Below, piece after piece: positions 3,272 through 22,810 of a DNA stretch of 63,810 bases. The notes beneath the pieces are model-generated. The model made no database searches. It was not told the DNA's origin and saw only the letters and a program-made list of their open reading frames with translations. The translations under genes and the position numbers were made by a program. The stretch lies in NCBI GenBank assembly GCA_964187785.1, contig OZ076409.1, positions 7,442,191 to 7,506,000 on the forward strand, in the 5' to 3' direction. Each line of letters opens with the position of its first letter. The stretch's first letter is position 1. Source of the DNA: Amphiscolops sp. MND2022. Its lineage: Eukaryota.

Positions 3272-3504
3272 GGCTCTTTTCTGTTCAACCCCCCCCCACA
3301 GAACGTTTTTTGGAAAATTAATGAAAGTTTTATGAAAAAGACTTGAATACAAACGAGAATCCTTCAATTTCAATATATTTACAGTGTGACAATTTGCAAT
3401 TGAGATATAGAATTTGTTCACACTATTTTTCCTTGTGAAGTCACTCGTTTTTGATCAGAAAATTAACGGCTTCCTGTTTTGAGTCACAAAAATACAGTGA
3501 ATAC
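3272..3504 (+). mobile_element. Left part of a GGCTCTTTTCTG-TIR MITE interrupted by element 1 (continues 21574-~21700)
   Basis: The joined flanks align by eye to the intact copy at 22811-23233. Confidence 0.7.
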
Positions 3505-3923
3505 TGTGATGCCATGATGCATGTCCTCAAAGATTTTATAAGTCTGAAATACTCTGAACTCTTAACCGAAGAAATTAGTAAATCTAATTGAATCTAGAAA
3601 CCAATTATTCTAGAAGAAACTTCATTTAATAGATCCTGTATCAAACTTCCCTGCTTTATCCTGTTGCTGTCACATTATTAATTGATGTAACCTACCCTAG
3701 TTAATAGAATATATCTACTTGGAGAAATTGAGAATTCTTCCTAGCAATCAGTCTTCTTCCAACACTTCAAGAACTGAGATCTCAGAAATAGACTGTACTC
3801 TGAAATAGCTAGCTACCAAATATAAGATAAAAGATAAGACGACTCCGCTGTTAAAATCTTAGACTTCTTATGTCAGTTCTAACTTGTATAAAAGAAACAA
3901 CCACAAAACTTTTTAACAGCTCA
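3505..3923 (+). repeat. Element 1 5' LTR (419 bp)
   Basis: TGTGATGCC...AACAGCTCA; no difference from 21151-21569 seen by eye. Confidence 0.95.
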
Positions 3924-3925
3924 AT

Positions 3926-3940
3926 TGGTGCGACCACGAA
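3926..3940 (+). promoter_or_regulatory. Element 1 primer-binding site (TGGTGCGACCACGAA)
   Basis: TGG starts 2 nt after the LTR end. The tRNA identity is not established. Confidence 0.75.
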
Positions 3941-4077
3941 AATTCTTCTTTCTCTCCCATTTGTTTCACACATCTACAATTGTTGTACGCCTTTCCTCAA
4001 CTTTTTCATTCGATATCTCTTTGTTCGACACACAGTCTCTCCACCTCTCAACATTGCATACCGTTATTAACTTCAAC

Positions 4078-4384
4078 GTTGCAACCAATTTCTACTTGAA
4101 ATTGATCCGTGTTGCTATGGTTCTGACTGCGTTCATCAACGTAATTCCTGTCAGTCATACTTCTTGGTTCTGACTACGTTTCTTCACGTAATTCCTGTCA
4201 GTTAAATTTTTCGTTCCAACCACCTCTGAGTGAATTCGTGTTGGCTTTCTTCTTCTTCTCTCTTTCTTTCGTTCCAACCGCAGACGTGCGATACGTGTTG
4301 GCCCTTTTACAGTGCTATCCAGCGATTCCTGCTAGTAAAACTCTCTTTGGTTCTAGCCGCTCGGATCAACTTTAAAGTTGGCAC
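4078..4384 (+). ncRNA. Array of six bulged stem-loop RNA motifs in the element 1 leader
   Basis: GTT + 5-bp stem + inner hairpin + ATHCST bulge at 4078-4115, 4120-4154, 4167-4201, 4213-4244 and 4271-4301, plus a permuted copy at 4317-4366. Stem sequences differ but still pair. Confidence 0.7.
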
Positions 4385-4623
4385 ACATATATAACACATC
4401 TTTCTCCATAACATCACTATAATACTTTTTTCTTCTCTCTTTTATACTACAAGCTACATATAAAACTTCTTTAAAACTCTCTTACGGATCCAAATATATA
4501 ACAATTCAGATATATACCACATATATCACACCTCTCTTTACATTACTTTCATTTTTCATACACCTATACACAACAACAATTTTGTATAACTTTTTTTACA
4601 CGCCTTATAGAACTTTATTGTAC

Positions 4624-4746
4624 ATGCCGCCTTCAGTAGACATTGTAGTCAAACTCATTGTCTGCTTTTGGTTCTTTGTTGCTATCGTTGCCGGTCTTGC
4701 ACTTTTCCTAGACAAATTTTTAATTTCATTCATACCAAAATTTTAA
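4624..4746 (+). CDS. Leader small ORF1, 40-aa single-TM peptide
   Basis: ATG...TAA encoding MPPSVDIVVKLIVCFWFFVAIVAGLALFLDKFLISFIPKF; below the ORF-track cutoff. Confidence 0.5.
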   Translation: MPPSVDIVVKLIVCFWFFVAIVAGLALFLDKFLISFIPKF

Positions 4747-4765
4747 AGTACAACCTTTTCCTTCT

Positions 4766-5005
4766 ATGTTAACAAGTATAGTACTACCTCTTTTTGGACT
4801 ACTTAATATATACCACACTTTCAAAATACTTATTCAATATATACAAAACCCACTTCTTCTTTTCATAAGTATTGTACTTACTATTTTTCTACAAGTTATT
4901 TTCATAGATCAAATTTTACCATATAATTCACAATTTAATACAAAATATCTTCTTTTCCGATACATCTACCCTTTATGGCAATCCTATTGTACTAATCAAA
5001 CCTAA
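4766..5005 (+). CDS. Leader small ORF2, 79-aa hydrophobic peptide
   Basis: ATG start, hydrophobic stretch PLLLFISIVLTIFLQVIFI; ends 9 nt before the gag-pol ATG. Confidence 0.45.
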   Translation: MLTSIVLPLFGLLNIYHTFKILIQYIQNPLLLFISIVLTIFLQVIFIDQILPYNSQFNTKYLLFRYIYPLWQSYCTNQT

Positions 5006-5014
5006 TATCATATA

Positions 5015-8000
5015 ATGCTCCCCACTCCCTTTACAGTCTCTAATGATAAAAGACAAAATCGATCTCTTATACAATATGTAACACCTTTTCTACAAAATAT
5101 TATCTTTCAGTACACTAACCCACTTCCATTTGAAACAGAACCCCATATACTACACACTATTCCATTAATACGAGAACATTGTGATTCCTACTTATATTAT
5201 ATTCAATATAAAACACTTGACATAACACCATCACAAACTCCTTTTCAAGTTATTTTTAACCCTGTTAAAGGCATAAACTCTGGAACATTTTATAGAACTA
5301 TACACCCACAAAATATCACACTTTCTATACAAGATGTTTTTCGCACATATCTACAAAAACTCATTGAATTCAATGAACACCAAGACATACCACCTTATCG
5401 TCCTTCTCATTTACAAGAACTCAAACGCTTGTCTGAATATTTCGAGGTTCCTGATCTTGACACAAAAGTTCAAAGACACGGTAACCCTCATTATTGGCTA
5501 CAACGAGATATATTACAAGTAAAGAACTTTGAATACAAATTCTTTACAAAAATCACCCTTACAGATGACACTATACCTCAAGTCAAAATTTTTACACATT
5601 TCTTATTAAAATTCTTTAGATTTAACTATCAATTACTTTGGGAACAAAAAGACCAAAATGCTTATACTAACTTCCCAAAAGCATTAACAGACATAGAACT
5701 CTTACCATACATTATAGACAATAAAAACAAACATTTACATTACATAGATCTTACCTCATTAAATGCTACACATTTTGAACAAATAAACCTAGATCACAAC
5801 TTTGTACTTGAACATTCTGAAACGTCAGACAGTAGACCTTATATTACATCTGATACTTTACATCAACCAACTCTTCAAACACGAACTTTTGATGTTGAAC
5901 CTCCATATATAAGACAACAATCAGAACAATCAGAACAAGAATCTATAACACAAGAAACACTTGTTCATCTTTTTCACAATCCTGATTCTCCTCAAGAACA
6001 ATCACCACAGCCACCACAATCACAAATTTCTGATACGCGACAACCAAATCCGTCTGAAATACATACACTTCCCAATACATCAGAACTTTCCGATGAAACA
6101 GTACAAAATCCACAAAGTTTTACAATAACTCAGGACACCAATCTTATAGCAATTCCTACTCACAATATCACCCAAAAGACTACAAATCAAAATCAAGACA
6201 ACCCTTCAAATGTCATCACCGATAATACTTCTGTTTTATCACAATATAATACTAATATTACACAACCCTCTCAAACACAAATATTATCTCCTCGAAATTA
6301 TGATCCACCTCCTATTCCTCCCCAATTCTCAGCTCAAATAAATACTCATAACTCTCCTCAACCAAGCTCATCAAATACACACTCTATTACACAGAACCAA
6401 AATACAGTACATTTCCAAACACCAACTCCACCTACATCTTCTGAAATACAAACTTCTACTTATACTCCAGCTCAAACTAACCCAGTACAAACTACACAGC
6501 CTACTTTAAATATTAACACAATTCATTCCAACCCACCCTCTAACTATACTACAGCCAGACATCTATCTCGACCTCCATTACAACCTATATTAACTGACCC
6601 ATTATCATACAATCTTACCTGTACCAATCCAAGTCATACTCAACAATCTCAAATAAATTATAACACACACAACCAATTAAACACTCTTTCTTCCCAGCAT
6701 ACATCCAATACAATTCCTCCTACATTACAAACCTCTCACTTTCAAATATCAAATCCTCCTTCAACAACAATTAGAACTAACCCTCACTTTCATAATACTT
6801 CAACTATATCTTCAACTAATATTTCACACCATCCTACGTATAATACAACACCTCCATCTACTATATCTCATAACACTATGTCACATCCAACATATATTAA
6901 CTCTTCTACTTCTATATCAGAACCTATTAAACCTTTTGACGGACTCGATCACAACTATACACCTGAAGAATATTTACAACATATTGAGGCACGTGTTACA
7001 TTCTCTTTAGGTTTACAACCTACCTCAGAACATGAATATAAATTTTGGCACGCTCGCCGCATGGCTTTCATACAATGCTCTTTAACAGGTACAGCACTAA
7101 GCTGGTACATCCGTTTAAACGACACTTATAAACATGATTGGCACGCTTTTGTACAAGCTTTCAAAAAACAATTTTCTTCACAAAAGAACGCTTATTATGC
7201 TCAAGTTGAAGCCCTTAACTTAACAAAGAAGGATAATGAAACAGTACGCCACTTTGCACTTAAAGTTCAACAACTAGTTGAAAAAGGCTGGTGCAATGAA
7301 AATGCATCCACTATTAACCTTAAATGTAATGAAATCTTCACAAAAGGACTTCCAAAAACCCTTAAAGACTTTGCAAATAAAAGACAAGTAAAACACACCT
7401 CTACTGTTCTAGAACCTTCGATTCCTTTCCATACATTGGTAAAGCTTGTTGACGCTGAAGATATTGCAAATGACAAAATCAGAACACATGATCTTGCACT
7501 TGAAATAAACAATATTACAAAACAATTGAACACTCAAACCTTAGATCACTCATCTCAAGAACAACTTATGTATACACAACCCAAAGACCCAAATAACAAA
7601 AATAAACCCGCATATAAAAAATATTGCTCATACTGTCATAGAACAAATCATTCCATTTCTGCTTGTTTCAAAAAACAACGAGATGATCAAGATAAACGAG
7701 AAGCATATGCTCGATCAAAATCTCCACAAAAATCATTCGTTCAGTACTTTCGTTCTCCTTCCAATGACAAAACAAAACACTATGATAATCCATATCGAAG
7801 TCGAAGTACTTCACGAGACAACTCTTATAACCAAAAATATTCACAAGATAGATACCGTTCTACATCTCGAGATAGAGACCGATTTCGTTATGATAAAAGT
7901 ACTACTCCTCCACATTACTCCAGATCAAGATATGACACATATAAACGCGATTCTCGATCGTACCGTTCTCCTTACAGATCTTCTTATAGATCTCCATATA

Positions 8001-11000
8001 GACAAAATTCTCGTACTAGATACAGATCACGCTCTTATTCAAGAGATGACAAATTTAACAAATACACCAATTCATATAGACCACCTTCTAGACCAAGAAA
8101 CTCTCGATTTTCTAGATCCAGATCACATTCCAATTCCAGAAATAAAATCAATATAATACAACAACAAGAACAAACTGATCCTATCAAATTTGAAGTACAC
8201 ATGTACCACCCAACAGCAATGGCAAATGCTGTCACACCTACAAGTTGGTTTTATACTCTATATGTACACACTCCATCAAGTATAGTACAAAGAGACAACC
8301 CTTCTAGACTAGAAATTGCATTTCTCCTAGATAGCGGTGCTTCCATTTCTGTACTCAATTACCCAACATATATAACTCTTACAAAACTTCTCGATATTCG
8401 ACCCAATCATACCTCTGATGTTGGACCAACAAGAAATTCCAAAACACTAACTGTTGCAAACCAAACCGAAGTTCCTATCTTACATTATGCAAATATCATT
8501 CTGAATACCACTATTGACGAAAATTCCCGATACTTTTCAGTACCCTTTGCAGTAGCTGATATTAAATACAATATCCTTGGTACACCATTCTTCGAAGACA
8601 ATATACAAAACATAAACATACAAGACTTTACACTCGAATTTAAATACCAATCAAAAACACACCCAAATTATGCAAAATTTACAACACTTCTATCTAAAGA
8701 TTATCCATACTTCTCGTACATTTATAGAATCAACTCAAAAACCCAAACACGTTTAAAACCTAAATCTTCAAAAATTGCACACTTTCCGATCAAAAATTAT
8801 CATAATCTTCATTTTACAACTACACCGCAAAACCACTTCTTTCCTTCAGTACCTCATACCTATTTTGCTACCAAATTCCGTACAACTTTCAATTTTATTG
8901 AAGTTTTTACAGACGACAAGCCAGACATATGTGCAACAATTATTCAAAACACTTCAAAACATATTGCAACGCTACCTACAGGACATATTGGCTACATCGA
9001 ATTTCCAATTACTAATGAAAGACCCAAATTCTTCCAAGTTAATGACATAAATACTTTAATACATAATGTTACTCATACTTACCATCCTGATATTACCGAA
9101 CCACTCCCACAAACAAATTATATTGTACAATATGATGACCCTACAACCCCTCCTCCACAATTCTCCTTACATCAAATTTATATGACAAATGACTACATTC
9201 CCCATCAAACTTCTTCTCTATATAACGTTCAACCTACTTCTCATACATCAGAAAAACGCATTTTCCCTTCTCTTCCATATACTTCTGAAAATCTGAAATT
9301 TATTAACAAATTTAACTTTCAATTTTCCGACCTTACAGATTCAGAATACATTACTCTTTGCAATATGCTCCTCAAATATAAAACATGTTATGCAACTCAT
9401 AAAAACGATGTTGGAAAAATTTCAACACCCTTTCGTATCCGACTTAAACCCAATGCCCAACTTATGACACAACGTCCTTCCAAAGTCCCTATTCATTATC
9501 GAGACAAATTAAATGCACTTCTAAAAGAACTCGAAAAATATAACATTATTAAACAAATTGGTTCTTCTCCTCATGATAAACCCGTCTATGGCACAACTTA
9601 TTTAAATCCTCTTATTATAATCCCCAAGGGAGATACAATAAAATGTGTATTAGACGCTCGACATCTCAATTCCAATACAGAACAATCTGATGAATCTTGG
9701 CCTATTGAACCTCTTGCTCCACAATTAGCACGCGCAAACAAAAAGTACAAATCTGCTATTGACCTTATGTATGCCTATGCACATACACCTCTCGACGAAG
9801 ACACTATAAAACTTACTAGCTTCTCTTCAGGAGATAAACTTTTCGCTTTCATACGAGGCTTTTATGGTCTCAAAGGACTACCAAATTTCTTTACAAAACA
9901 AATGTCTACCTTCTTTAAAACTCTTATAGAACAAGGTTTCGCTCTTGTCTACATTGATGATATATTACTTTTATCCGACTCTAAAGAACATATGTTTCAG
10001 CTCATAGAACAACTCCATATTATCAGTACAAAAAATAATCTTAAACTAGCCCCTGAAAAATCCTTTTTTATGCTCCTCAAGGTCAAATTCCTTGGACATG
10101 AAATTGGTTACAATACAATTAAACCAATTCATTCAAAAATTGCAGCTATTCATAAAATCCCTTCTCCAACTGGCAAAGTTGCCCTCATGAGTTTCATTGG
10201 CGCACTCAATTTTTACACTAAATTTATTGAAAAATTACATATTAACCTCAAACCGTTTTACGATCTTTTACATGAAAACACTCCTTGGAAATGGACAGAT
10301 GAACACGAAAGTCTATTCCAAAAACTTAAAATGTCTCTTACATCTGAAACAGAATTAACAATACCGAATACAAAACATCCATTTTTTATTACAGTTGACG
10401 CTTCCCTTATTGGATTAGGCGCTGTCTTATTCCAGTTAAATGAACAGAACAAAATGAAAGTCATATCGTACAACTCTCGTATACTTAGCCCACAAGAACA
10501 AAAACTCTCCACACTTGATAGAGAACTCCTTGGTATAGTACACGCACTCCAAATCTATGAATTTCTTATCATAGGTTCTCCACATCCAATACACATTTTC
10601 ACTGATCACAAACCTTTATTACATTGTTTTACAAAGAAAGGTAATCTCAGCCCTCGTTTCTATAGAGCCCAAATGCAATTGACAAAATTTTCAAAACTCA
10701 AAATAATTCACACCCCTGGAAAAAATCTTTCTGTTGCCGATATGTTGAGTCGCTCATTCACAAAAGCTGAATTACAACTCAACCAATTAAAACATAAACA
10801 CCTTCCACCACAAATCGATTTTGCACTTTTACAAGATAACACTCTTAAACCTGTACATTACTTAATAAAACATGAAGAAATTTTATCCCATCAAAAACAT
10901 GACTCTCATCCAATTCTTGCTGATTATGGTACAGATCAATTCTCTATCCGTATCAATGATAAAGGAAACGACATTATTGTAAAACCCTTACAATCTTTCT

Positions 11001-13210
11001 CATTCAAATCTGTAACCCCTTTTCAGACCAAGTTTAAGACACCTACAAAAAAGAACAACAAAACCCTTCATCAACAATCTCTCTTACTTAATGATACTGA
11101 CGTTACAAGCGATGACGAAGATCATATTTACACAAGAATTCCAAAATCTAACTCTTCTTTCTCACAAGATACTACATTACAAACAGAAAATTATTCTACT
11201 CTTAAACAACAAAGTCACAACACATCACAGAAATCAATTTCTGCAATAAATGTACAACCAAATTTCCCATCACTCACACACTGTCAACAAATTATACCCT
11301 TTTATGATACATCATTTTTTAAGTATAAAAACTACTTTCAAGGTTTCTTCCTCCCCGATGATTACTCATTAGACATAAAAACTCTTCAACAACAACAATC
11401 TCAAGATCCGGTTCTCAGAACTGTTTATTCTTGGTTATTGAACAATGAAAAACCCGAATTTGTAACACCTCTTATCACTGGTACTCCATTTCTACATGTA
11501 TATTACAAAAGATTTTCACAACTTTTCATCGATGAATCGACTAATCTTATTAGTCTGTACATTACAAACTCCACTGTTAATAACCAATCCTATACTCCAA
11601 ATTTTGTACAAGATACTATTCGCATATGCCTACCTTTTAGACTATTTAAAACTGTCTTTAACAAACTTCACGAACATTCTCACACTGGTATGAAAATCAC
11701 CTACAATACATTCAAACAATATTACTATATTCCATTCCTTGAAAAATGGCTTTCCATCTTCATACATGACTGTATTGAATGTCAACGTAATAAACACTTC
11801 AATATGAAAGTTCAAACTGCTCCTACACAATCATTTTCAGAACATGCTCCATCCTTCAACTATAGAATCTCCATGGACACTAAAGGACCTATTAATCCTC
11901 CTTCTCACAACAAATCCTATATACACGTAATAATTGACGCTTTTAGTCACTTTGTTGTTACAGTACCCATAAAATCAAACAACGCAAAGACTGCTATCAA
12001 AACTCTTCTACACCATTGGATTATTAAATTTGGACCACCCATATACCTTGTCACTGATCGTGGATCAGAATATGTTAACAAAGAAATGGCACACCTTTGT
12101 ACACTTATGGGAATCCGCCATTCTCCTAGAACAGCTTATTCTCCTTGGACAAATGGTCTTGTTGAAGTACAAAACAGAAATCTTGGTACTCATCTTCGAA
12201 TGTTTCTACATGACACACCTAAAGACTGGGCATTTCAAGTCCATATGTACGCTTATGCACATAATTCACAACCACTTTCAGAACTCAATGTTTCACCTCA
12301 TGAAATTGTTTTCCATACTAGACCCAGAATACCCCTCACATTTGATTTAAACCTTAATCGAGATACTTCCAAAACATGTATTTCACGTTATTGCTCTCAG
12401 CTCCCTGAACACTCTCACTATGACAAATCAGACTTAAACCCATTCTTCTATAAAACACTTTCAAAACCTATTCCCCAATGGTTTCTCGCTGTAGAAACTG
12501 CTATGTTACAAATTTACTCCACAGTCTACGAAAACACTCTACGAAAAATTAACTCACACGCATATATTACAAAAACTTACCACGAAGGTAAACCCCTTCC
12601 CATTGGTACCTTTGTTTTAAAACGCAATTTTACACATGTTCACTTCTCGGACAAACTCAAACCTCTTCGTATTGGACCATATAAAATTCTTGACAGACTA
12701 TCAGACGTTACCTATGCATTACTTGCACAAGATGGTTCTATAGTACATGTTCATAGAAATCATTTAATCCCATATTACCCTAAAGAACCACTCTTATATC
12801 CACATTTGCGTAATTTTATGCGCTTTTCAGACACCACTCAAAACCAAATACCACAAATTACTAGATATGCAAACAGTGATTCTTCCCCATTTAACTCAGA
12901 TGAATCTTTGTCTGAAGAAGATTCTCAAACATTTATGACACCACCATCATGTAGTACATCCAATCAAAATACACCATCTATAACATCCAATGACAAGTCT
13001 TTACCTTCCTCAACCAATGACAACTCCTTATATAAACATATAATTAATACCCCTCACACTAATGTCCCTAGTGACAGATTGAGACACCCCTCTCACAACC
13101 AAACAACTTCACTTCCTCCTCTAATTGACAGAACCACAAAAACCACTTATAAACTGCGACAACAACCCAAATTAGATTATAGACTTTTTATTACACCTTC
13201 CCAAATATAA
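5015..13210 (+). CDS. gag-pol: Gag-Pol polyprotein (2731 aa, single frame)
   Basis: Capsid (PFDG...LTGTALSWY...FKKQF), zinc knuckle CSYCHRTNHSISAC, RS-rich tract, protease LDSGA, RT YIDD, RNase H (DAS, REL, TDH, ADMLSR), integrase HHCC plus D-D-E (MDTKGP, TDRGSEY, GLVE), GPY module. Confidence 0.95.
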   Translation: MLPTPFTVSNDKRQNRSLIQYVTPFLQNIIFQYTNPLPFETEPHILHTIPLIREHCDSYLYYIQYKTLDITPSQTPFQVIFNPVKGINSGTFYRTIHPQNITLSIQDVFRTYLQKLIEFNEHQDIPPYRPSHLQELKRLSEYFEVPDLDTKVQRHGNPHYWLQRDILQVKNFEYKFFTKITLTDDTIPQVKIFTHFLLKFFRFNYQLLWEQKDQNAYTNFPKALTDIELLPYIIDNKNKHLHYIDLTSLNATHFEQINLDHNFVLEHSETSDSRPYITSDTLHQPTLQTRTFDVEPPYIRQQSEQSEQESITQETLVHLFHNPDSPQEQSPQPPQSQISDTRQPNPSEIHTLPNTSELSDETVQNPQSFTITQDTNLIAIPTHNITQKTTNQNQDNPSNVITDNTSVLSQYNTNITQPSQTQILSPRNYDPPPIPPQFSAQINTHNSPQPSSSNTHSITQNQNTVHFQTPTPPTSSEIQTSTYTPAQTNPVQTTQPTLNINTIHSNPPSNYTTARHLSRPPLQPILTDPLSYNLTCTNPSHTQQSQINYNTHNQLNTLSSQHTSNTIPPTLQTSHFQISNPPSTTIRTNPHFHNTSTISSTNISHHPTYNTTPPSTISHNTMSHPTYINSSTSISEPIKPFDGLDHNYTPEEYLQHIEARVTFSLGLQPTSEHEYKFWHARRMAFIQCSLTGTALSWYIRLNDTYKHDWHAFVQAFKKQFSSQKNAYYAQVEALNLTKKDNETVRHFALKVQQLVEKGWCNENASTINLKCNEIFTKGLPKTLKDFANKRQVKHTSTVLEPSIPFHTLVKLVDAEDIANDKIRTHDLALEINNITKQLNTQTLDHSSQEQLMYTQPKDPNNKNKPAYKKYCSYCHRTNHSISACFKKQRDDQDKREAYARSKSPQKSFVQYFRSPSNDKTKHYDNPYRSRSTSRDNSYNQKYSQDRYRSTSRDRDRFRYDKSTTPPHYSRSRYDTYKRDSRSYRSPYRSSYRSPYRQNSRTRYRSRSYSRDDKFNKYTNSYRPPSRPRNSRFSRSRSHSNSRNKINIIQQQEQTDPIKFEVHMYHPTAMANAVTPTSWFYTLYVHTPSSIVQRDNPSRLEIAFLLDSGASISVLNYPTYITLTKLLDIRPNHTSDVGPTRNSKTLTVANQTEVPILHYANIILNTTIDENSRYFSVPFAVADIKYNILGTPFFEDNIQNINIQDFTLEFKYQSKTHPNYAKFTTLLSKDYPYFSYIYRINSKTQTRLKPKSSKIAHFPIKNYHNLHFTTTPQNHFFPSVPHTYFATKFRTTFNFIEVFTDDKPDICATIIQNTSKHIATLPTGHIGYIEFPITNERPKFFQVNDINTLIHNVTHTYHPDITEPLPQTNYIVQYDDPTTPPPQFSLHQIYMTNDYIPHQTSSLYNVQPTSHTSEKRIFPSLPYTSENLKFINKFNFQFSDLTDSEYITLCNMLLKYKTCYATHKNDVGKISTPFRIRLKPNAQLMTQRPSKVPIHYRDKLNALLKELEKYNIIKQIGSSPHDKPVYGTTYLNPLIIIPKGDTIKCVLDARHLNSNTEQSDESWPIEPLAPQLARANKKYKSAIDLMYAYAHTPLDEDTIKLTSFSSGDKLFAFIRGFYGLKGLPNFFTKQMSTFFKTLIEQGFALVYIDDILLLSDSKEHMFQLIEQLHIISTKNNLKLAPEKSFFMLLKVKFLGHEIGYNTIKPIHSKIAAIHKIPSPTGKVALMSFIGALNFYTKFIEKLHINLKPFYDLLHENTPWKWTDEHESLFQKLKMSLTSETELTIPNTKHPFFITVDASLIGLGAVLFQLNEQNKMKVISYNSRILSPQEQKLSTLDRELLGIVHALQIYEFLIIGSPHPIHIFTDHKPLLHCFTKKGNLSPRFYRAQMQLTKFSKLKIIHTPGKNLSVADMLSRSFTKAELQLNQLKHKHLPPQIDFALLQDNTLKPVHYLIKHEEILSHQKHDSHPILADYGTDQFSIRINDKGNDIIVKPLQSFSFKSVTPFQTKFKTPTKKNNKTLHQQSLLLNDTDVTSDDEDHIYTRIPKSNSSFSQDTTLQTENYSTLKQQSHNTSQKSISAINVQPNFPSLTHCQQIIPFYDTSFFKYKNYFQGFFLPDDYSLDIKTLQQQQSQDPVLRTVYSWLLNNEKPEFVTPLITGTPFLHVYYKRFSQLFIDESTNLISLYITNSTVNNQSYTPNFVQDTIRICLPFRLFKTVFNKLHEHSHTGMKITYNTFKQYYYIPFLEKWLSIFIHDCIECQRNKHFNMKVQTAPTQSFSEHAPSFNYRISMDTKGPINPPSHNKSYIHVIIDAFSHFVVTVPIKSNNAKTAIKTLLHHWIIKFGPPIYLVTDRGSEYVNKEMAHLCTLMGIRHSPRTAYSPWTNGLVEVQNRNLGTHLRMFLHDTPKDWAFQVHMYAYAHNSQPLSELNVSPHEIVFHTRPRIPLTFDLNLNRDTSKTCISRYCSQLPEHSHYDKSDLNPFFYKTLSKPIPQWFLAVETAMLQIYSTVYENTLRKINSHAYITKTYHEGKPLPIGTFVLKRNFTHVHFSDKLKPLRIGPYKILDRLSDVTYALLAQDGSIVHVHRNHLIPYYPKEPLLYPHLRNFMRFSDTTQNQIPQITRYANSDSSPFNSDESLSEEDSQTFMTPPSCSTSNQNTPSITSNDKSLPSSTNDNSLYKHIINTPHTNVPSDRLRHPSHNQTTSLPPLIDRTTKTTYKLRQQPKLDYRLFITPSQI

Positions 13211-13311
13211 TCTGGTCATTCTCTCTGTTGGCTTATTCAAACCTAGTCACTCTGGTTGACCGAATGTTGAATAGATGAAATAAAACCCATAACAAGTTAT
13301 CTTAAAGATAA

Positions 13312-14568
13312 CCTGTTGAAAACACTTCAACAATCCTGGATCCTCCCTCTGATATCTCTCCATCAGCTCCAAGTATTCCTTCTACACCTGAATCTTCAGT
13401 ATCAAACACCACAAACTCTAGTAATGTAACTCCTACTACTCCTTCTAAAAGACCCAGATCATACATCTCTGAAACCTCTTCTTCTTCACTTCTTCACAGA
13501 CCACCTATAACCGAAATCCCTATAAACACTCGTCCCCAACAAACTCCTATTAACACTCCTATTATACACATACCAAACCCTGAAAGTGTTGAACAATACG
13601 TAACATACAAACACCCTACAGCTATCAAAACTGTTAGACTCCAACCTCAACTTAATCTAGTACAAATTCCTGATACTGAATATACAAAACTACCTCCACT
13701 AAAATTACCTTCAGAACTTAGCACTACAGAACTTAGTTCTACTTCTTCAAAACTTTATCCACCATTAAAACCTCTTCGAAAACCCTCTACATCACTCTCA
13801 AATCTCTTAGACAATAATACTTCTGACTACGCTCCATCACAAGACACAAGCTCATTTTTTGTACCTAGACATAGATATAATCTCCGTGACCTTCCTTCAC
13901 GTAGACTTAGTACCGACACTTCCACACTCAATTTTTCCGCTCTTTCTAGCAATTCTGCATTACGACTTGTAAGACAACACGCTCAACCATTGTCCTCTGA
14001 CCCATCCTCTTCAGAACTTTTTCACTCTCCTTATTTTACTTCTGGTTTTGAAACCGCTTCATTACTCTCATCTAATCCACAAACTGCATTCCTATCAGGC
14101 GATCATTTTTCACAAGTAGTAATTCCTACTCCTGTTCCTGCACATATTAGACTACCTGAATATTATACTGCAGAACATTCTAGACCTCCAACCCCAAACT
14201 TTGCTGATTATCCACTTCGAGTCGATGGTATAACTATCTACGACCCACAAAACGATCCTCGATTTCCAATTCTTGCAGAACGTTTTATTAATAACAACGA
14301 TCTCTTATCTCATAAACGTAAAGAAACAGAACTAAAACGTCTTCAGACACCAAATTTAGAACTTAAATTTGAAGTCAAAGTCAAATTTCAAGGATTAAAT
14401 CCTCACCCAATATTTCACGTTTCTAAAATAGAACATAAAACTTCTCCTGCTCCTTTTGAAGTAGTACACATTGAATTTGAACGCGATCTTAATATACCCA
14501 CTATCACATATGGCAACATTGTCTTTTGTAACCCATACTCTGGTCTCAAATATAAGACATCCTTTTAA
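13312..14568 (+). CDS. ORF-X: ~418-codon stop-free frame without ATG, P/S/T-rich with a globular-looking C-terminus
   Basis: The frame of track ORF 13990-14568 stays open upstream to the TAA at 13309-13311; overlaps the env start. Confidence 0.55.
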   Translation, partial: PVENTSTILDPPSDISPSAPSIPSTPESSVSNTTNSSNVTPTTPSKRPRSYISETSSSSLLHRPPITEIPINTRPQQTPINTPIIHIPNPESVEQYVTYKHPTAIKTVRLQPQLNLVQIPDTEYTKLPPLKLPSELSTTELSSTSSKLYPPLKPLRKPSTSLSNLLDNNTSDYAPSQDTSSFFVPRHRYNLRDLPSRRLSTDTSTLNFSALSSNSALRLVRQHAQPLSSDPSSSELFHSPYFTSGFETASLLSSNPQTAFLSGDHFSQVVIPTPVPAHIRLPEYYTAEHSRPPTPNFADYPLRVDGITIYDPQNDPRFPILAERFINNNDLLSHKRKETELKRLQTPNLELKFEVKVKFQGLNPHPIFHVSKIEHKTSPAPFEVVHIEFERDLNIPTITYGNIVFCNPYSGLKYKTSF

Positions 14569-17215
14569 ATTCTACACAACCTTTTATATAACAATTATAA
14601 TTCTTTTACACTTCTTTAACTCTACCTTTTCAATAACTATAGTACACCCTGATACAGAAAACTATCTTCCATCGGATGATCCGAATATTACAAATCTCAT
14701 GGTTTCTCATTATGACTGTGCAAAACAACACAATCTCAGACAATTCAATCTACTTAATGTAAAACAATGCACTGAAGCTCCTTCTGACATTAAACATGCA
14801 AGTGTTAAAGCCCGTGTATATGTCCGCGCAAAAGCTAAACGTATCAAAGCTTTCAAATGTGTTGCTTATGCAAAGAAAGAAAGGAAAATATGCTTTCAAG
14901 GATCTGTCAAATATCGTCGTGTTGATCGAACTGTATGGAACCATAATACATTACCGCTTCCTGTTACTCTTGATCCACTAGAATGTAAAAACATTATCAG
15001 ACATTTAAATGGTACAAATGATAAAATATTGAACAACCTTAACTACAACAAAACATTTACACTCTTAGAAGATCATTATTTTCAAGAACGTTTAGAACAA
15101 TATCAAACTCCTTTCACTGTATATCAATTGAACAAAATGTATACAGGTACATTTACATTTATGCCTGCTGACAAAAACTGGATATATGACCCTACAAAAA
15201 ACCCTTATCATAACTGTCCTGCTCACCATCAATTCGAAGTCAACTTAGTTAGTTGGCGACTAGAAATTTCTGAAATAGAACTTACCTATGATGACACATC
15301 AAATGACATGATCATTGATGGACATACATTACCCTGCTATTTTGCAGATGGCTTTTGTAAACCCACTACCAAAACTCCTTTTACTCTTGTTTGGTTTAAT
15401 GACGATTATTGTCTGATTTTTACCCTACAAGACTTTATTGGACGTATGACTAAAATCGAAGATCGATATTGGATTGAAACAGACTCTTTTGTACATTCTC
15501 CACATTCAGTAAAATCTCAAACTGCTTCTGGCATAAAAGGTACAAAACACCCTTATGTTCATGCTCCTCATACACAACATCCAAATAACCCAAGTCTTTC
15601 AAGATTTGAAGTTTTCCCTACAGCACAAACCTTTTGTGGTAAACCAGACCCTCTCTATTCTACACAATACTCCGATCTTTTTGTTACATACACTGATGGT
15701 TTTAATATGCATACAGGACAACCTAATCCTCATTCCATAATTGATGAGTATATCTCTGGTAAAATCGTATTGGACACTTCAAATAACAAATTTGTATTCC
15801 CTGCATTAAATGTATCAAACAATTTCGCTACCATTGATTATGATGCACATATCAACACCAAAATTGACTATACTATTAATCATGTTTTCCGATCAATGAC
15901 AGTACAAGAACTAAATACTCTTCATACCATATGTGAACTAGAACGAAATCAACTCCTTACAATACTTGCAATGTCAGTACAAAATCCTCAACTTGCTGGT
16001 TTCCTTTTAACTGGTAATAGAAGTAACTTCTTATACGTTGAAGGCTCAACCGCCTGGCTTTATGACTGTCCTCATTTTTTATCTCCTTTATATAAGGCAG
16101 ATAGATGTTTTGACCGAATACCCATACATTTTAAAGATACCTTAATGTACGTTGATCCTATTACAAGACAAACTTATGACTATGCTACACCAATTACATG
16201 CGATAATAATCCACGTAACATTATTGAACTAGACCCTGATTCAGATGATCAAGACTTCTACATTCTTGGACCTGAACCTATCAAACGTAAACCTCCACTA
16301 ATGTTTACACCTTCACAAATCAAAACTACAATACGCCCTAATACTTTTACAGCCCAAGATGCTGGTATATATTCAAATGCAGAACTTGATCAATTTTGGA
16401 ACCGTATTTTATTTTCTAAACACTCTGATTCTACACTTCAATTACTAGGTAAAGCTCTTAGTTATTCATTCATTTCATCTAATACTCCAAACTACGATGC
16501 AGATTCCCCTCAAACTTCTGGTAATCCTTACAATACATTACGAATAGGACTACATGATAAACTCTTGAACTTAACTCCTCTTTTTACACCTACATGGTTC
16601 TCTGATGCTTTTATTGCACTTTTTGGATACCCTTGTTACATTCTTACACAATGTGGCATATACTTTTCTACATTTCTTTTTGTACAAGCTACTCTCACAC
16701 TTATTGTTAAACTTTACAAAACAATATCAATTAAATATAATCTTAAAAATAATATTACTTTATTTAGTTCTATTGCACATGGTTTTTTTAATGTTCTTAC
16801 AGCACGAATGGTCAGTGACCTACATGAGGCTCAAAACAAAAAACCCAAAAGTACACTTTCCAAATCCAAATCTTTAGATAACTTTATTGACACTTCTCCA
16901 AATTTAATTAACCATTCTACAGATGTTACTTCCCCTCCACCTTTTTATACTAAACGATCTAACAAAATTCAATTTCCTAAATTTAACTTCTTTCCGAAAC
17001 GACACCACAATTCTCACCATAAAACGACTCCACTTCCTTTCTCTTCTGTTCAACATCCCCCACTTCCTAATTATACTCATAAAAACTTTCACCCAAATGA
17101 CAATCTAACTACTCAACATGACACTTTAATTAACAATTCTGTCACTTCTACTACGGATACACCAATTAAAATTTATTCACGAATAAACTATCCTTTCCCT
17201 CCGCCATCTTCTTGA
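14510..17215 (+). CDS. env: Env glycoprotein, chuvirus-G / gB-type class III fusogen-like (901 aa from first ATG)
   Basis: Signal-like FYITIIILLHFFNSTFS; YDC...LLNVKQC; CELERNQLLTILAMSVQNP; EGSTAWLYDC...CFDRIPI...VDPITR...PITC; N-glycosylation sequons; C-terminal TM and cytoplasmic tail. Confidence 0.8.
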   Translation: MATLSFVTHTLVSNIRHPFKFYTTFYITIIILLHFFNSTFSITIVHPDTENYLPSDDPNITNLMVSHYDCAKQHNLRQFNLLNVKQCTEAPSDIKHASVKARVYVRAKAKRIKAFKCVAYAKKERKICFQGSVKYRRVDRTVWNHNTLPLPVTLDPLECKNIIRHLNGTNDKILNNLNYNKTFTLLEDHYFQERLEQYQTPFTVYQLNKMYTGTFTFMPADKNWIYDPTKNPYHNCPAHHQFEVNLVSWRLEISEIELTYDDTSNDMIIDGHTLPCYFADGFCKPTTKTPFTLVWFNDDYCLIFTLQDFIGRMTKIEDRYWIETDSFVHSPHSVKSQTASGIKGTKHPYVHAPHTQHPNNPSLSRFEVFPTAQTFCGKPDPLYSTQYSDLFVTYTDGFNMHTGQPNPHSIIDEYISGKIVLDTSNNKFVFPALNVSNNFATIDYDAHINTKIDYTINHVFRSMTVQELNTLHTICELERNQLLTILAMSVQNPQLAGFLLTGNRSNFLYVEGSTAWLYDCPHFLSPLYKADRCFDRIPIHFKDTLMYVDPITRQTYDYATPITCDNNPRNIIELDPDSDDQDFYILGPEPIKRKPPLMFTPSQIKTTIRPNTFTAQDAGIYSNAELDQFWNRILFSKHSDSTLQLLGKALSYSFISSNTPNYDADSPQTSGNPYNTLRIGLHDKLLNLTPLFTPTWFSDAFIALFGYPCYILTQCGIYFSTFLFVQATLTLIVKLYKTISIKYNLKNNITLFSSIAHGFFNVLTARMVSDLHEAQNKKPKSTLSKSKSLDNFIDTSPNLINHSTDVTSPPPFYTKRSNKIQFPKFNFFPKRHHNSHHKTTPLPFSSVQHPPLPNYTHKNFHPNDNLTTQHDTLINNSVTSTTDTPIKIYSRINYPFPPPSS

Positions 17216-17464
17216 ACTCTCTCTCAGTTCTTTTGTAACTCTCTTCCAGAACGCTCGCCTGCTATCTCTTCACAATTGCTACTCCTTCACCACTTGAAAC
17301 TCTTGCCGAAATTCATCTTCCTCAATCTAATAACACTTCTCTCATCATCACCATCTTCAAAAACTCTTCAACTAAAGTTGACAAATCCACTCGTTAGTGT
17401 AATTTATAGTACTTTAACTTTAAAGTGCTAAGGCCTCTTGAAATAGATAACACTGTGACTGTTG

Positions 17465-18808
17465 ATGCTTTCTCAAATAATGACACAAGCACAAATTGAC
17501 CTACAAACACAGCTTGAACAAGCAACTCCAACAGATCTTATCACAAGACCTCTTCCTAATGATTCTCCTGTTCTCTATATTGATACTTCTGAAAAAACAC
17601 CTCCAACTTTTCTTGAACCAATGGAACACACAAAAGTTGACAATGAAAATCCAAAACCTACTCCTCCACAAGATGATACTGATCATACACAATCGACACC
17701 TCCTCCTCCAAAAAAGCGATATGAAATAATGAAAGATCCAATCTTTCTTTCCTCACCAATATATCCTCCTTCAATACCTTCAAAAATTTCACTTTGCACA
17801 AATCGCGATGATCATTTGATCTCAATTCTTTCCACTGACGATTTCGTCTTCAAAGCACAACTAACTTCTCTATATATGCATCCTACTGACTACTCATTTC
17901 GCTTATATGACAAAAATCAAGACTTCTTCACATCCATTGCTTCCAAAATCATGGGTCCCTACCAATATTGGCTCGAGAATGGAGTTAAAATTTTCTCTCT
18001 CCAATTCAATTTTCTTAGACCTTCTATCTACGATCTCAAAACGGATGAATCTGATCCATCCTTTCTCTCTATAGCACAAAAAGCTTCTCATCATCAGACA
18101 TATACTAAATTTCTACAATACACGAAACCACAAAATTACATTTTTGTCAATTACAAATATACATCACCGTTCACAATGACAAATATGTACACTCTCGATC
18201 ACTCCTGTATAACAGGCTACCTCCGGAACTATGACCCTATAAAGCAATACTTCTGTTTGCTTCCATATAACAATACTTCACGTCCACTTATTGTACCTCA
18301 AGAATATCTCATACACTATGATGATTTTTTGTTGCCTTGCAACATCCCTACTCAAATTGCAAAACCTCTTACTGTTATTAAACACCTCGTTTCTTCTCCA
18401 CTTGACGATAAAGATAGAACATACTATACAGCACTCTACAAACAAACGTATTCCTACAATGAACTTCTCTTTATATCTGCCAAAACTATCTCTTTCATGG
18501 TACAAGCTGAACAAAAAACTGAACATAAATCACACACTTCACCCATCAAAAACACCCATGACAAACTTTCCTCTGTATTAAACAATCGCACACTTCGAGA
18601 CATGACAAATTTACTGGAACCCTACAAACGAAACTCCTCTGAAACACCTATCACAACACTCACACATATACTACACTGCTATGACAGAACACACAAACTC
18701 CTTCAGACACTCGATTTAGATTCTCAACGCATCACTCAATCATCCCAAGCAATTCAATCTGCTTTGGAAACTATAACTACTCTTTTTAATTCAACTAATC
18801 TTCATTAA
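17465..18808 (+). CDS. Accessory ORF4, 447 aa, unknown function
   Basis: Intact long ORF inside the element; PPPPKKR NLS-like motif; helical C-terminus. Confidence 0.7.
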   Translation: MLSQIMTQAQIDLQTQLEQATPTDLITRPLPNDSPVLYIDTSEKTPPTFLEPMEHTKVDNENPKPTPPQDDTDHTQSTPPPPKKRYEIMKDPIFLSSPIYPPSIPSKISLCTNRDDHLISILSTDDFVFKAQLTSLYMHPTDYSFRLYDKNQDFFTSIASKIMGPYQYWLENGVKIFSLQFNFLRPSIYDLKTDESDPSFLSIAQKASHHQTYTKFLQYTKPQNYIFVNYKYTSPFTMTNMYTLDHSCITGYLRNYDPIKQYFCLLPYNNTSRPLIVPQEYLIHYDDFLLPCNIPTQIAKPLTVIKHLVSSPLDDKDRTYYTALYKQTYSYNELLFISAKTISFMVQAEQKTEHKSHTSPIKNTHDKLSSVLNNRTLRDMTNLLEPYKRNSSETPITTLTHILHCYDRTHKLLQTLDLDSQRITQSSQAIQSALETITTLFNSTNLH

Positions 18809-19223
18809 ACTTCTCTACAGGTAATATAAAGTTTTAAATTTTCTTCTCTGGTACATCCTGTGGTACATTTATGGCACATTTTCCAAGGTATTTTCATTTT
18901 TATTTAACGAAAATCCTTACTTTTGAATGAAATCTCCTTATTTCTGAATGAAATCTCAGGACTGTTTTAAAGTACGCTAATTTTTCCTACAGTACATGTC
19001 AAAATCTAACTAATTTTTACTCAGAACACTACAATACAAGACATACAAGACAATATCACATAACATTATAGCACCCAATTTTGTTGTACATCTTTGACTT
19101 GATATTGTCATTCTTCTTACACTTCCTTTGTTTTAGAAACATCCATTCTTCCTTCTCCTTCCTCCAAATTCTTTCAGAACATCCCAACTTCTCCTTCTTT
19201 GTATTCCTTCAACTCTCGTCAAA

Positions 19224-19676
19224 ATGGCCCCGAATGCTGAAACAAATGACATTCTCACAATGACTTCTGAATTTTCAAAAGTACATAGTCTTAAAGCCGC
19301 CATCTTTCATACCATGGCCTTCAAACTCTCGCTTGAAATTCACAAAAACAAAATTACCCCAAAATGCCTAATCGCTTTCCTAAAGGTACTATACAACGTC
19401 ACCCAAATAAAGAAGAAAAAAATCACTTTCGAACAATATTCCCGAATCCATCTACAAGGACCTAAAATTGCCATTTGTGGAACGGCATCTAATGTTGTTT
19501 TTGTCCTCAATTCGTCTTTCACGTCAAAAGATCAATACTTTCGTGCTGCTATTCAAGAAGCTACAGATGCTTTTAATAACATGTTACAAGATTTCGGGTA
19601 TACGCAACAACTCGAACTTTATGACCCGATACAACATCAACCTCATCCTCCAACGCAAAATTCTCTCTTTCAATAA
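19224..19676 (+). CDS. Accessory ORF5, 150 aa, unknown function
   Basis: Strong Kozak context AAAATGG; protein-like composition. Confidence 0.6.
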   Translation: MAPNAETNDILTMTSEFSKVHSLKAAIFHTMAFKLSLEIHKNKITPKCLIAFLKVLYNVTQIKKKKITFEQYSRIHLQGPKIAICGTASNVVFVLNSSFTSKDQYFRAAIQEATDAFNNMLQDFGYTQQLELYDPIQHQPHPPTQNSLFQ

Positions 19677-19914
19677 TCTCTAACACAAATTCTACTTACT
19701 TCTTCTTCACTCTTTGACTACATTTCGTCTCCCAACTCTTCATCTTCTTTCGATGATGCTTCGAAATGTGGTTGATGCTCACTTCCAAGAACTCCTACAC
19801 ATGCTGAAACTCTTCACTTCTTCACCCACCACGATGGTCAACAACATCCATCTCTATTTTGGGTTCATCGACGTTGCCAAACACTTGTCCTTGTCAACTG
19901 GTCTTCTTCACACC

Positions 19915-20090
19915 TTCACTGCTGACTTTGTGAACTGGTCGTCTTCGCACTTCAACTGCTGACTTTGTGAACTGCTCTTCTTCACATCTCAACTGCTGAC
20001 TTTGTGAACTGGTCTTCTTACTTCAATGGCCGATACAAATTTCAAACTGAACTGTATAATCAAATTTTAAACTGAACTGTATAATCACTT
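19915..20090. repeat. Short tandem duplications in the element 1 3' region
   Basis: ACTGCTGACTTTGTGAACTG x3 (period ~37) and AAACTGAACTGTATAATCA x2. Confidence 0.8.
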
Positions 20091-21150
20091 ATAATAAATA
20101 TAACCTGTAACCCATTTTAATCACATCATAATATAGACTAGTGCTATCTACTTGTATCTAAATCTTAGTGCTCTATAATCTTGTTTAAATTGAAGTATAC
20201 TAGTGCTATATACTCATAACTTTTCACGCTATATAATCTTAATCTTATAATTACCCCTCATTAACCATAATCCTTCCCAAATTCTACCCATAATTATTCT
20301 TGTAACCGCAATATTATCTACTCCCATTGTATTATGTATAGAACTTTAACATTATCTTACTTAATTACCCACTTCAAAATACATTTTAACCCCCGTCTTT
20401 TTACAGAACACAAGTCCTACTTACAGTACAAGAAATTTTCTAAGATTTTTGGACAAAAATTTTTCTTTTACCAAACATGTTCTATAACTTTTCTTTAACC
20501 TTTAAAAGCATTCCCAAAAAATTTTCCAAAATTTTCTTTAGCCCTCTTGAAAAATTGTCACTTGCGAAAAATGTCACTTCTAGTTTTCCAATGTTTGAAC
20601 CTTGAAATGGCCAAAGTTTTTTTTCAACTCTTGCTTCTGCTCTGCTCTTCACTTTTGTTGAAAATGAACTCTCACTTCAACCTTGACTTTTCAAAACTTC
20701 TTCACTTTTGGTTCACATACCCGCCAATGTTGGTTCACAACTCATTGACAACTCCACGCTTTAATTCTTCAACTTGAAAAGTTTTTCATGCTGACTAACT
20801 CATGTTGATGAAACAAACTTTTTCAACAAGCCGATGGCTGATACGTACGAAAAAGAAACATGAAAGAATAAATAGTTGTCAACAATAACTTCAAAGAACT
20901 TGTCAGTCAAAAAAACTGAAAGAACTTGAACTTGTTTGAACCTTTTTGCACCAATTGAATCGTCTATGACGTAAGAAGTCAAATCGTCTTAGGTTGTTCT
21001 CACTCCTTAAGTATGGTACTCTACAAAACAAAACTCATGCAACTTTAGTACAACACATATGAAACAAACCCATGTATATAACAAAAACTTCTAGAACTCC
21101 TCAAACTCAGAATGCATATATGTAATTTTATTTTTAAATTCCCGGTTGAT

Positions 21151-21569
21151 TGTGATGCCATGATGCATGTCCTCAAAGATTTTATAAGTCTGAAATACTC
21201 TGAACTCTTAACCGAAGAAATTAGTAAATCTAATTGAATCTAGAAACCAATTATTCTAGAAGAAACTTCATTTAATAGATCCTGTATCAAACTTCCCTGC
21301 TTTATCCTGTTGCTGTCACATTATTAATTGATGTAACCTACCCTAGTTAATAGAATATATCTACTTGGAGAAATTGAGAATTCTTCCTAGCAATCAGTCT
21401 TCTTCCAACACTTCAAGAACTGAGATCTCAGAAATAGACTGTACTCTGAAATAGCTAGCTACCAAATATAAGATAAAAGATAAGACGACTCCGCTGTTAA
21501 AATCTTAGACTTCTTATGTCAGTTCTAACTTGTATAAAAGAAACAACCACAAAACTTTTTAACAGCTCA
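21151..21569 (+). repeat. Element 1 3' LTR (419 bp)
   Basis: Direct repeat of 3505-3923, followed by TSD ATAC. Confidence 0.95.
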
Positions 21570-22810
21570 ATACGATCAAAAAATAGTTGAAATGTCTGAA
21601 AAATGTTTTAATCAAACAGAAAACTATTCCAATAGACGTTAACTTACTGTCATGAAAGGAGGTTTTACTTTTAATTAGTCTGAAATTTTAAAGAACTTTA
21701 TTAGAATAGTTTTTCGTTTGAACAAAACATTTTTCACACATTTTAACTGACTGTGTTCGAATTAACTGAGTTTTGTGACTCAAAACAGTAAGCTGTTGAA
21801 TTTTCAATAAGAATGCGTGACTTCATAAGGAAAAATAGCTTGAACAAAGTTTCCATCTGAACTCTAAACTGTCGGAATTCAGAAAAGAACCAAATTTAAA
21901 TTGAGCGAATGAATTTCGAGGAAACTGAAATGACATCAACTCAAAATCAGACGAGTTTTTATCGAGGAAGTTTTCAGTCTGTTTTTCCGATTTTCTGTGA
22001 AAAAAGCTGATTTTGAAAAGGTCCTTTCAAAATTCGCGGGTGATGGTCGTAAATTCAGATTAACCTCAGATTGCTTTTCTGTCTACCTATGACTAGAAAT
22101 TATTGACCTAATTTGTTTCGCGTCACACTTGTTTCCCATGCTGGATCATTCTTGTAAAGTACCATTTTTTTTGAAATTCAAAGTGACCATTTAAATTTCA
22201 CCATTCAAATGGTTAATATTTGAATCAAATTAAATTTAAATCAAAATTTATATTACTTTAAATTCCAAAATATAGTAAATGTTCATCGCTGGCCTTGGAT
22301 GCTTGAGATTGTCTGCTTTGAGAAGATATTTTTCTGCCATCGCCTGCTCACAGAGTTTCCCAGTTAAAGTACGTTTGATGAGCTGCTGGTCGCATTTCAA
22401 CAAACCGGGAACCGCAAAAGTCGTTGCCCCACTTGAGGCTCAAAAAAGAAGAAAAATACTTCAAAGCCTCAAGGATTCTGAATAAATTCGCAATGTCACA
22501 GTACCGAAAAAACTCAAAGGGGGTTTTTATTGTATTCTGACCAAAAACATGAAAAAAAACCCCACATTTTCTGCTTTTGCCGCAAGAAACCATAAAATCA
22601 AAGCGAGAACCTTTTGTGAAATATGAATTTTCCTAAAAAAAATTGCACAGTGGCCAAAACAGGGCTTAAAACGCTTTCATATCCAACAATATCGAAAAAC
22701 TTGAAGGAGGACCATTTTGGAGTTTTTTTGGAAAGTCGCAGTGCCAGAAAAGACTCAAGGGGCTCAAAAACAGTTTTTGCTATCTAAAATCATTTTTGAA
22801 AAAAAAACAA

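Follow-up and report, generated by a model that had tools for sequence, protein, structure and literature searches.

Why does the leader of one LTR element carry six similar units whose halves can pair, one of them with its halves in the opposite order, and is this array a selected RNA structure or a by-product of duplication? The question arose from an earlier reading of the letters alone (the sequence-only reading), which described six copies of a bulged hairpin and suggested a protein-binding or packaging signal, a response element or a translation element. We examined the array within a 63,810-nt stretch of Amphiscolops sp. MND2022 DNA (contig OZ076409.1, positions 7,442,191 to 7,506,000; hereafter the window, whose coordinates are used below). 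ORF reading and a domain search placed it in an intact 18-kb Ty3/gypsy LTR element with env, in which the features of an env-carrying member of this group were all found: LTRs, the RT-RNase H-integrase order, and an env-like ORF. The element is laid out as follows.

3505..3923, + strand: 5' LTR, TG..CA, identical to the 3' LTR
3926..3943, + strand: primer-binding site, beginning with TGG; its first 11 bases are shared with the relative L002
4117..4173, + strand: 18-codon upstream ORF; its AUG falls between units 1 and 2 of the array, with G at -3 and +4
4624..4746, + strand: 40-aa ORF, intact, downstream of the array and upstream of gag; it contains a membrane-like hydrophobic segment
5015..13210, + strand: gag-pol, one unbroken frame of 2731 aa (Gag, protease, RT, RNase H, integrase)
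13312..14568, + strand: ATG-less open frame of 418 codons, located between pol and env
14510..17215, + strand: env-like gene, Monjiviricetes fusion glycoprotein (PF24664, E 2.2e-23)
17465..18808, + strand: accessory ORF of 447 aa, conserved family, no Pfam match
19224..19676, + strand: accessory ORF of 150 aa, conserved family, no Pfam match
21151..21569, + strand: 3' LTR, identical to the 5' LTR

The runs of LTR identity extend over 3505-3925 and 21151-21571, and the LTR end was placed at CA, since the two bases that follow are part of the 4-bp target duplication, ATAC. A single TATA- or poly(A)-like signal was found in the LTR (3887-3894, + strand), 36 nt upstream of the LTR end, which implies a very short R-U5 or U5. 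Gag carries one CCHC knuckle, at residue 871, together with an Arg/Ser-rich tract. The 418-codon frame (13312-14568, + strand) is rich in Pro, Ser, and Thr and would require splicing or a non-AUG start; no GT-AG joint was found in sequencing run X1. Both accessory ORFs are real conserved genes, with 599 and 277 protein clusters for the two, and relatives of the 150-aa product reach down to 34-44% identity. Models of the two proteins, with mean pLDDT of 47.8 and 39.7, were too poor for fold searches. Relatives of Pol at 93, 79, and 73% identity make up a large family, the 93% cluster alone holding 1183 sequences. We also observed a 37-nt unit present three times, without a clear fold, in the 3' untranslated region (19886-20019, + strand), while the second LTR element of the window (27794 to about 42440) has several antisense ORFs after pol (36520-39265, - strand).

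The LTR-gag-pol-env layout, the RT-RNase H-integrase order, and the viral fusion protein are shared with the env-carrying Ty3/gypsy and Tor elements described in the available text of PMC13524379 and PMC4402516, whereas the element here has three or four extra ORFs. The same portions of these papers mention no leader RNA motif, and in PMC13524379 the term 'UTR' is absent from the main text (0 occurrences). The 40-aa ORF is placed upstream of gag much like sORF2 of MDG1-group elements, but it is shorter (63-107 aa for sORF2), lacks the N-terminal Gly, and stands in an element that also has env (PMC11952523, available portion).

The array occupies 4077-4366 on the + strand, between the primer-binding site (from 3926) and the start of gag (5015), and comprises six units of 35-50 nt each.

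4077..4115, + strand: unit 1; GUU from 4078, bulge from 4105; predicted pseudoknot pair C-G; inner stem of 7 bp
4119..4154, + strand: unit 2; GUU from 4120, bulge from 4144; predicted pseudoknot pair G-C; inner stem of 6 bp including one G-U
4166..4201, + strand: unit 3; GUU from 4167, bulge from 4191; predicted pseudoknot pair G-C; near duplicate of unit 2
4212..4244, + strand: unit 4; GUU from 4213, bulge from 4234; predicted pseudoknot pair C-G; the weakest unit, with an inner stem of 3 bp and one extra A
4270..4301, + strand: unit 5; GUU from 4271, bulge from 4291; predicted pseudoknot pair C-G; GACG loop
4317..4366, + strand: unit 6, circularly permuted; GUU from 4350, bulge from 4325; predicted pseudoknot pair G-C; a 13-nt linker connects the halves, and the inner stem is lengthened to 8 bp

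Read 5' to 3', a unit consists of N-G, U-U, the 5' strand of a 5-bp outer stem, a variable hairpin whose loop is different in every copy, A-U-N, C-N', U, and the 3' strand of the outer stem. All six were found as the sequence-only reading had written them, with outer stems GCAAC/GTTGC, CTGAC/GTCAG (twice), CCAAC/GTTGG (twice), and CTAGC/GCTAG; inner stems CAATTTC/GAAATTG, TGCGTT/AACGTA, TACGT/ACGTA, CAC/GTG, CGCA/TGCG, and CGCT/AGCG; and bulges ATCCGT, ATTCCT, ATTCCT, (A)ATTCGT, ATACGT, and ATTCCT. The linkers between units are pyrimidine-rich. Shielding of splice acceptors was considered and rejected, as pyrimidines followed by AG end units 2, 3, and 6 but not units 1, 4, and 5.

Repetition of this anatomy is far from what shuffled sequence produces. 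A descriptor (GTT, a 5-bp stem, an inner stem of at least 3 bp, and ATNCNT) returned the six units over 63.8 kb, along with three cross-unit pairings and one isolated minus-strand match. Shuffled leaders held one unit in 8 of 2000 cases and two units in 0 of 2000, and shuffled arrays one unit in 9 of 5000 and two units in 0 of 5000; the motif thus does not appear equally often in shuffled sequence, where at most one unit was found, with the significance overstated by a descriptor drawn from the same six units. Pairing across units 1-5 is a fairer measure. Here, 94% of the 50 stem cells were paired, whereas shuffles gave 75.9 +/- 4.2 and 0 of 500 attained the observed value; sliding the partners brought pairing to at most 43%. 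Seven of the ten pairs had changes on both sides, the covariation score was reached by 0 of 500 shuffles, and at least seven separate double changes preserve pairing. The claim of a selected RNA structure in the leader is supported by these covarying stems, and the covariation appears to span three helices, including the pseudoknot described below.

Thermodynamic folding bears out the helices for single units but not for the array as a whole. When each unit was folded alone, its outer stem formed with a pairing probability of 0.88-0.99, while the inner stem of unit 4 reached only 0.19. Within the whole array, the outer stems of units 1-5 had probabilities of only 0.03-0.26, similar halves of different units cross-paired, and the folding energy was no better than in shuffles (z = -1.39). 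The best structure retaining all six units lies at -62.2, 4 kcal/mol above the minimum of -66.2, with the pseudoknot energy excluded from both values. The proposed + strand agrees with one G-U pair, in unit 2, but units on the minus strand fold about equally well, and the strand assignment rests on that pair and on the direction of transcription.

The bulge itself seems to be part of a further helix. The base before GUU (position -1) is complementary to bulge position 5 in all six units, as C-G in units 1, 4, and 5 and as G-C in units 2, 3, and 6, and next to it two invariant bases stand opposite each other, the G of GUU and the C of bulge position 4. Together, these would form a 2-bp helix that crosses the outer stem, which is a pseudoknot topology. 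Among 153 pairs of variable columns, seven were complementary in all six units; six are stem pairs, and the seventh is the pair of -1 and bulge position 5. The best of 105 unit trees needs only one change to explain this switch, at a split where an outer-stem pair also changes, and it may therefore be one event. The pseudoknot would account for 12 G left unpaired by the nested model, in a leader that otherwise has 7% G, against 25% in the unit core. Of the 52 G in the array, 33 lie in nested stems, so that 45 are paired once these 12 are counted; the remaining 7 fall in variable loops, linkers, or the unit 6 extension. The outer and inner stems of the earlier bulged-hairpin model hold, but it overlooked this covarying pair, and because the -1 base can pair into the bulge beside an invariant G-C, we consider it probable, from covariation, that each unit is a small pseudoknot and not a plain bulged hairpin.

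In copy 6 (4317-4366), the two halves stand in the opposite order, 3' before 5'. It does rebuild the bulged helix, as had been proposed, in both the minimum-energy and the centroid structures, and it is the best-folded unit in the context of the whole array (0.98 and 0.97). The permutation had been taken to argue for selection on three-dimensional structure over simple duplication. By itself it does not exclude duplication, since a tandem array offers a 3' half followed by the next 5' half, from which simple duplication can produce the permuted copy; units 2/3 and 4/5 can today pair a 3' half with the 5' half of the next unit. Selection is argued instead by what the copy has kept: every invariant base (G-U-U and A-U-N-C-N-U), the pseudoknot pair, and two double changes of its own, namely A-U to G-C at outer-stem pair 4 and U-A at inner-stem pair 4, where unit 5 has A-U. 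This suggests that selection acts on a shape independent of where the chain enters it.

We then asked how widely the motif is distributed. Rfam gave 0 matches at E up to 10 in 3400-5100 and 0 at the gathering score over 3400-21700. A covariance model built from units 1-5 (model R1), a check that the sequence-only reading had itself proposed together with Rfam, found no further copy within the window, including its other two LTR elements (next best E 0.069), and none among 14 loci (best E 0.23). Distant relatives were identified by protein at 13 metagenome loci with 30-45% identity, and none of the relatives came from viral contigs or from the prokaryote genomes searched. Three of these loci, L011, L012, and L002, include leaders, and at 30-36% Pol identity the motif was absent from them. 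When four other leaders were searched for the topology under relaxed rules, matches were no more frequent than in shuffles, and a match common to L006 and L008 was dropped because it sits inside env coding sequence. Pattern scans of phage loci (1 + 22 + 12) and 25 prokaryote loci found no array, and over all scans one full unit each was seen in 4 of 73 loci and an array in none, which we take as chance; a phage BLAST search gave no match. Contigs of run X1 span the whole array and differ from the window at six positions and by a 9-nt deletion. None of the six substitutions, nor the deletion, touches the core, which makes up 178 of the 292 positions. The nominal P of 0.004 overstates this, because a single C/T-rich linker contains three of the substitutions as well as the deletion and contig depth is 2-3; on 3-4 events it is about 0.02-0.06. 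The X1 contigs, which may come from the same source as the window, represent another copy of the family and not an independent lineage, and their weight is modest.

What could such an array do? In line with one suggestion of the sequence-only reading, the array may dock proteins at several points at once and so label full-length RNA for export and packaging, through a fold whose function is independent of strand connectivity; we hold this tentatively, at slightly below an even chance. N-G would pair with C-N', placing U-U along the outer stem, with A, U, U, and U as the invariant unpaired bases, and the variable hairpin would point away as a spacer. As the core is restored in copy 6 although its chain is opened at another point, the selected feature would be a surface and not a 5'-to-3' path. 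Several such surfaces on pyrimidine-rich tethers would give high-avidity binding only to transcripts that retain the leader. Oligomeric Gag, with its CCHC knuckle and Arg/Ser tract, is one candidate partner; others would be an accessory protein or a host factor for export. A TAR/RRE-like response element, also suggested by the sequence-only reading, would call for a trans-acting RNA-binding protein encoded by the element. The two conserved accessory ORFs are candidates for it, with models too poor to reveal an RNA-binding fold and no usable atlas hit. The covariation, the concentration of G in the core, the X1 changes outside it, the position of the array in the region where packaging signals lie, and the presence of a Gag with a CCHC knuckle and an Arg/Ser tract speak for the docking site; the whole-array z of -1.39, the weak outer stems in context, a pseudoknot switch that may be one event, and the motif-free distant leaders speak against it. 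Zinc knuckles usually read unpaired G. The conserved core exposes none, lacking this feature of packaging signals for a nucleocapsid zinc knuckle, which argues against a plain zinc-knuckle reading. Like Ty1 and retroviral packaging regions, the leader here has structured RNA adjoining the primer-binding site, a probable pseudoknot, and a zinc-knuckle Gag, but Ty1 has one long-range pseudoknot, whereas the modules here are six, local and interchangeable, and their conserved core exposes no G (available text of PMC4974528). The main Gag-binding site of Ty1 lies within its 5' pseudoknot, which could not be shown to act in encapsidation (same source and portion).

Other functions were weighed against docking. 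The array might recruit ribosomes or initiation factors for the 40-aa ORF and gag despite a leader of more than 1 kb with four upstream AUGs. Four AUGs do precede gag, one of them in strong context inside the array, and the linkers are rich in pyrimidine; we nevertheless regard a translation element as unlikely, as the array ends 260 nt from the 40-aa ORF and 650 nt from gag, no Rfam IRES or enhancer matched, and splicing or leader trans-splicing could resolve the AUG problem without it. A new small self-cleaving ribozyme, whose slow cleavage would leave some messages uncapped and the rest whole for packaging, is quite improbable. Its appeal lies in the compactness of the core, its invariant unpaired bases, and the dispensable hairpin, in viral 5' UTR ribozymes that initiate cap-independent translation (PMC13725137, in part), and in natural circular permutation, which has been reported for few RNAs, including hammerhead and twister (PMC10085705, in part). 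These two share with the array a permutation that keeps a small core and repeated copies in a mobile element, according to the same portion; they differ in that no consensus is common, that normal and permuted forms stand here in one array, and that self-cleavage is only a candidate. A cut 3' of the primer site would detach that site from the genome, six copies would multiply the loss, no Rfam ribozyme matched at E up to 10, and only one invariant purine (an A) lies outside pairs. A bolder reading, distinctly unlikely in our estimate, is that the unit is a new minimal tertiary fold with its own activity, either a new class of self-cleaving ribozyme or a split T-loop pseudoknot mimicking the tRNA elbow, caught mid-permutation with both forms in one transcript and dividing element RNA between translation and packaging. 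The tRNA T-loop (G53, U54, U55, C56, A58, C61; PMC10424219, in part) has counterparts in G-U-U (followed by C in five of six units) and A-N-N-C at equal spacing. This spacing, with the closing G-C pair and one further pair outside it, was found in all six units and could be a coincidence. In the unit, the parts are split over two strands by 25-30 nt of helix (the outer stem and the hairpin) in place of one contiguous 7-nt loop, and the base after GUU belongs to the outer stem; membership in the T-loop class therefore fails, and the likeness remains a lead.

An exonuclease block is very unlikely. In this reading, the 5' N-G would pair into the junction and brace the RNA, protecting it from 5'-to-3' decay or from premature termination downstream of the 5' LTR. 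The unit shares several features with class 1 flavivirus xrRNA (PMC7527734 and PMC8374639, available portions): two 5' bases pair with the junction strand with G-C as the second pair, P1 has 5 bp, an unpaired base (U) follows Pk1', the P2 hairpin is variable, and copies are in tandem. The 2-bp Pk1 complementarity holds at the sequence level in six of six units and perhaps reflects one independent switch. In contrast to class 1 xrRNA, the unit has an outer stem and one hairpin in place of a P1-P2-P3 three-way junction, with 3 nt between hairpin and Pk1'; it has no second pseudoknot to latch a ring of 15-16 nt (the longest loop-to-tail match is 2 bp, in five of five normal units); and it sits in a 5' leader with one copy permuted. 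With the Pk1/P1 half reproduced and the junction and latch missing, membership in class 1 was rejected. A permuted copy that enters the fold from another strand could not thread a 5' end, yet it has kept the core, which argues that the unit does not work like an xrRNA. The same copy, by making connectivity immaterial, lends something to a dimerisation device in which two genomes would each supply one side of a unit, 5' halves from the first and 3' halves from the other, so that the fold is rebuilt across two molecules. Adjacent units are able to swap halves, and the loop of unit 5 is GACG, the loop carried by the kissing hairpins of MLV. Dimerisation is most improbable all the same, as the loops are neither conserved nor self-complementary across units and swapping requires no invariant unpaired bases. 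An extremely unlikely explanation is a DNA-level repeat, of enhancer or insulator sites, with incidental symmetry: insect gypsy leaders carry repeated factor sites, and the strand evidence here amounts to one G-U pair, but at least seven separate double changes retain pairing, and the spacing of the two conserved halves varies, with their order reversed in one unit.

The array is a real structured RNA repeat with no match in Rfam or in the literature examined, namely titles and abstract beginnings outside subscription journals and outside the 1512-element table of PMC13524379, where no description of such a motif was found. For Ty3/gypsy elements, very little is known of cis-acting RNA structures, and the RNA structure of Ty3 is called uncharacterised in a review (PMC4974528, available text). 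Here, a module of about 40 nt carries its own internal covariation set within a large family and is small enough for probing, crystallography, and binding screens. The joint presence of normal and permuted forms indicates that permutation can be reached through duplication, and it limits the likely functions to those independent of chain direction.

Leaders of the distant relatives contain other repeats and helices. L002, which has the same gene layout, has a tandem repeat of ~61 nt that is distinct from the array and includes short palindromes (13053-13166 and 1-130 of that locus). In L004, a splice-donor-like sequence followed by a 6-bp hairpin occurs in two copies (26-70 and 189-230), with a third donor-like site near 361. 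Finally, L011 (4460-4530) and L012 (1125-1190) share a conserved helix-rich leader stretch that is unrelated to the motif.
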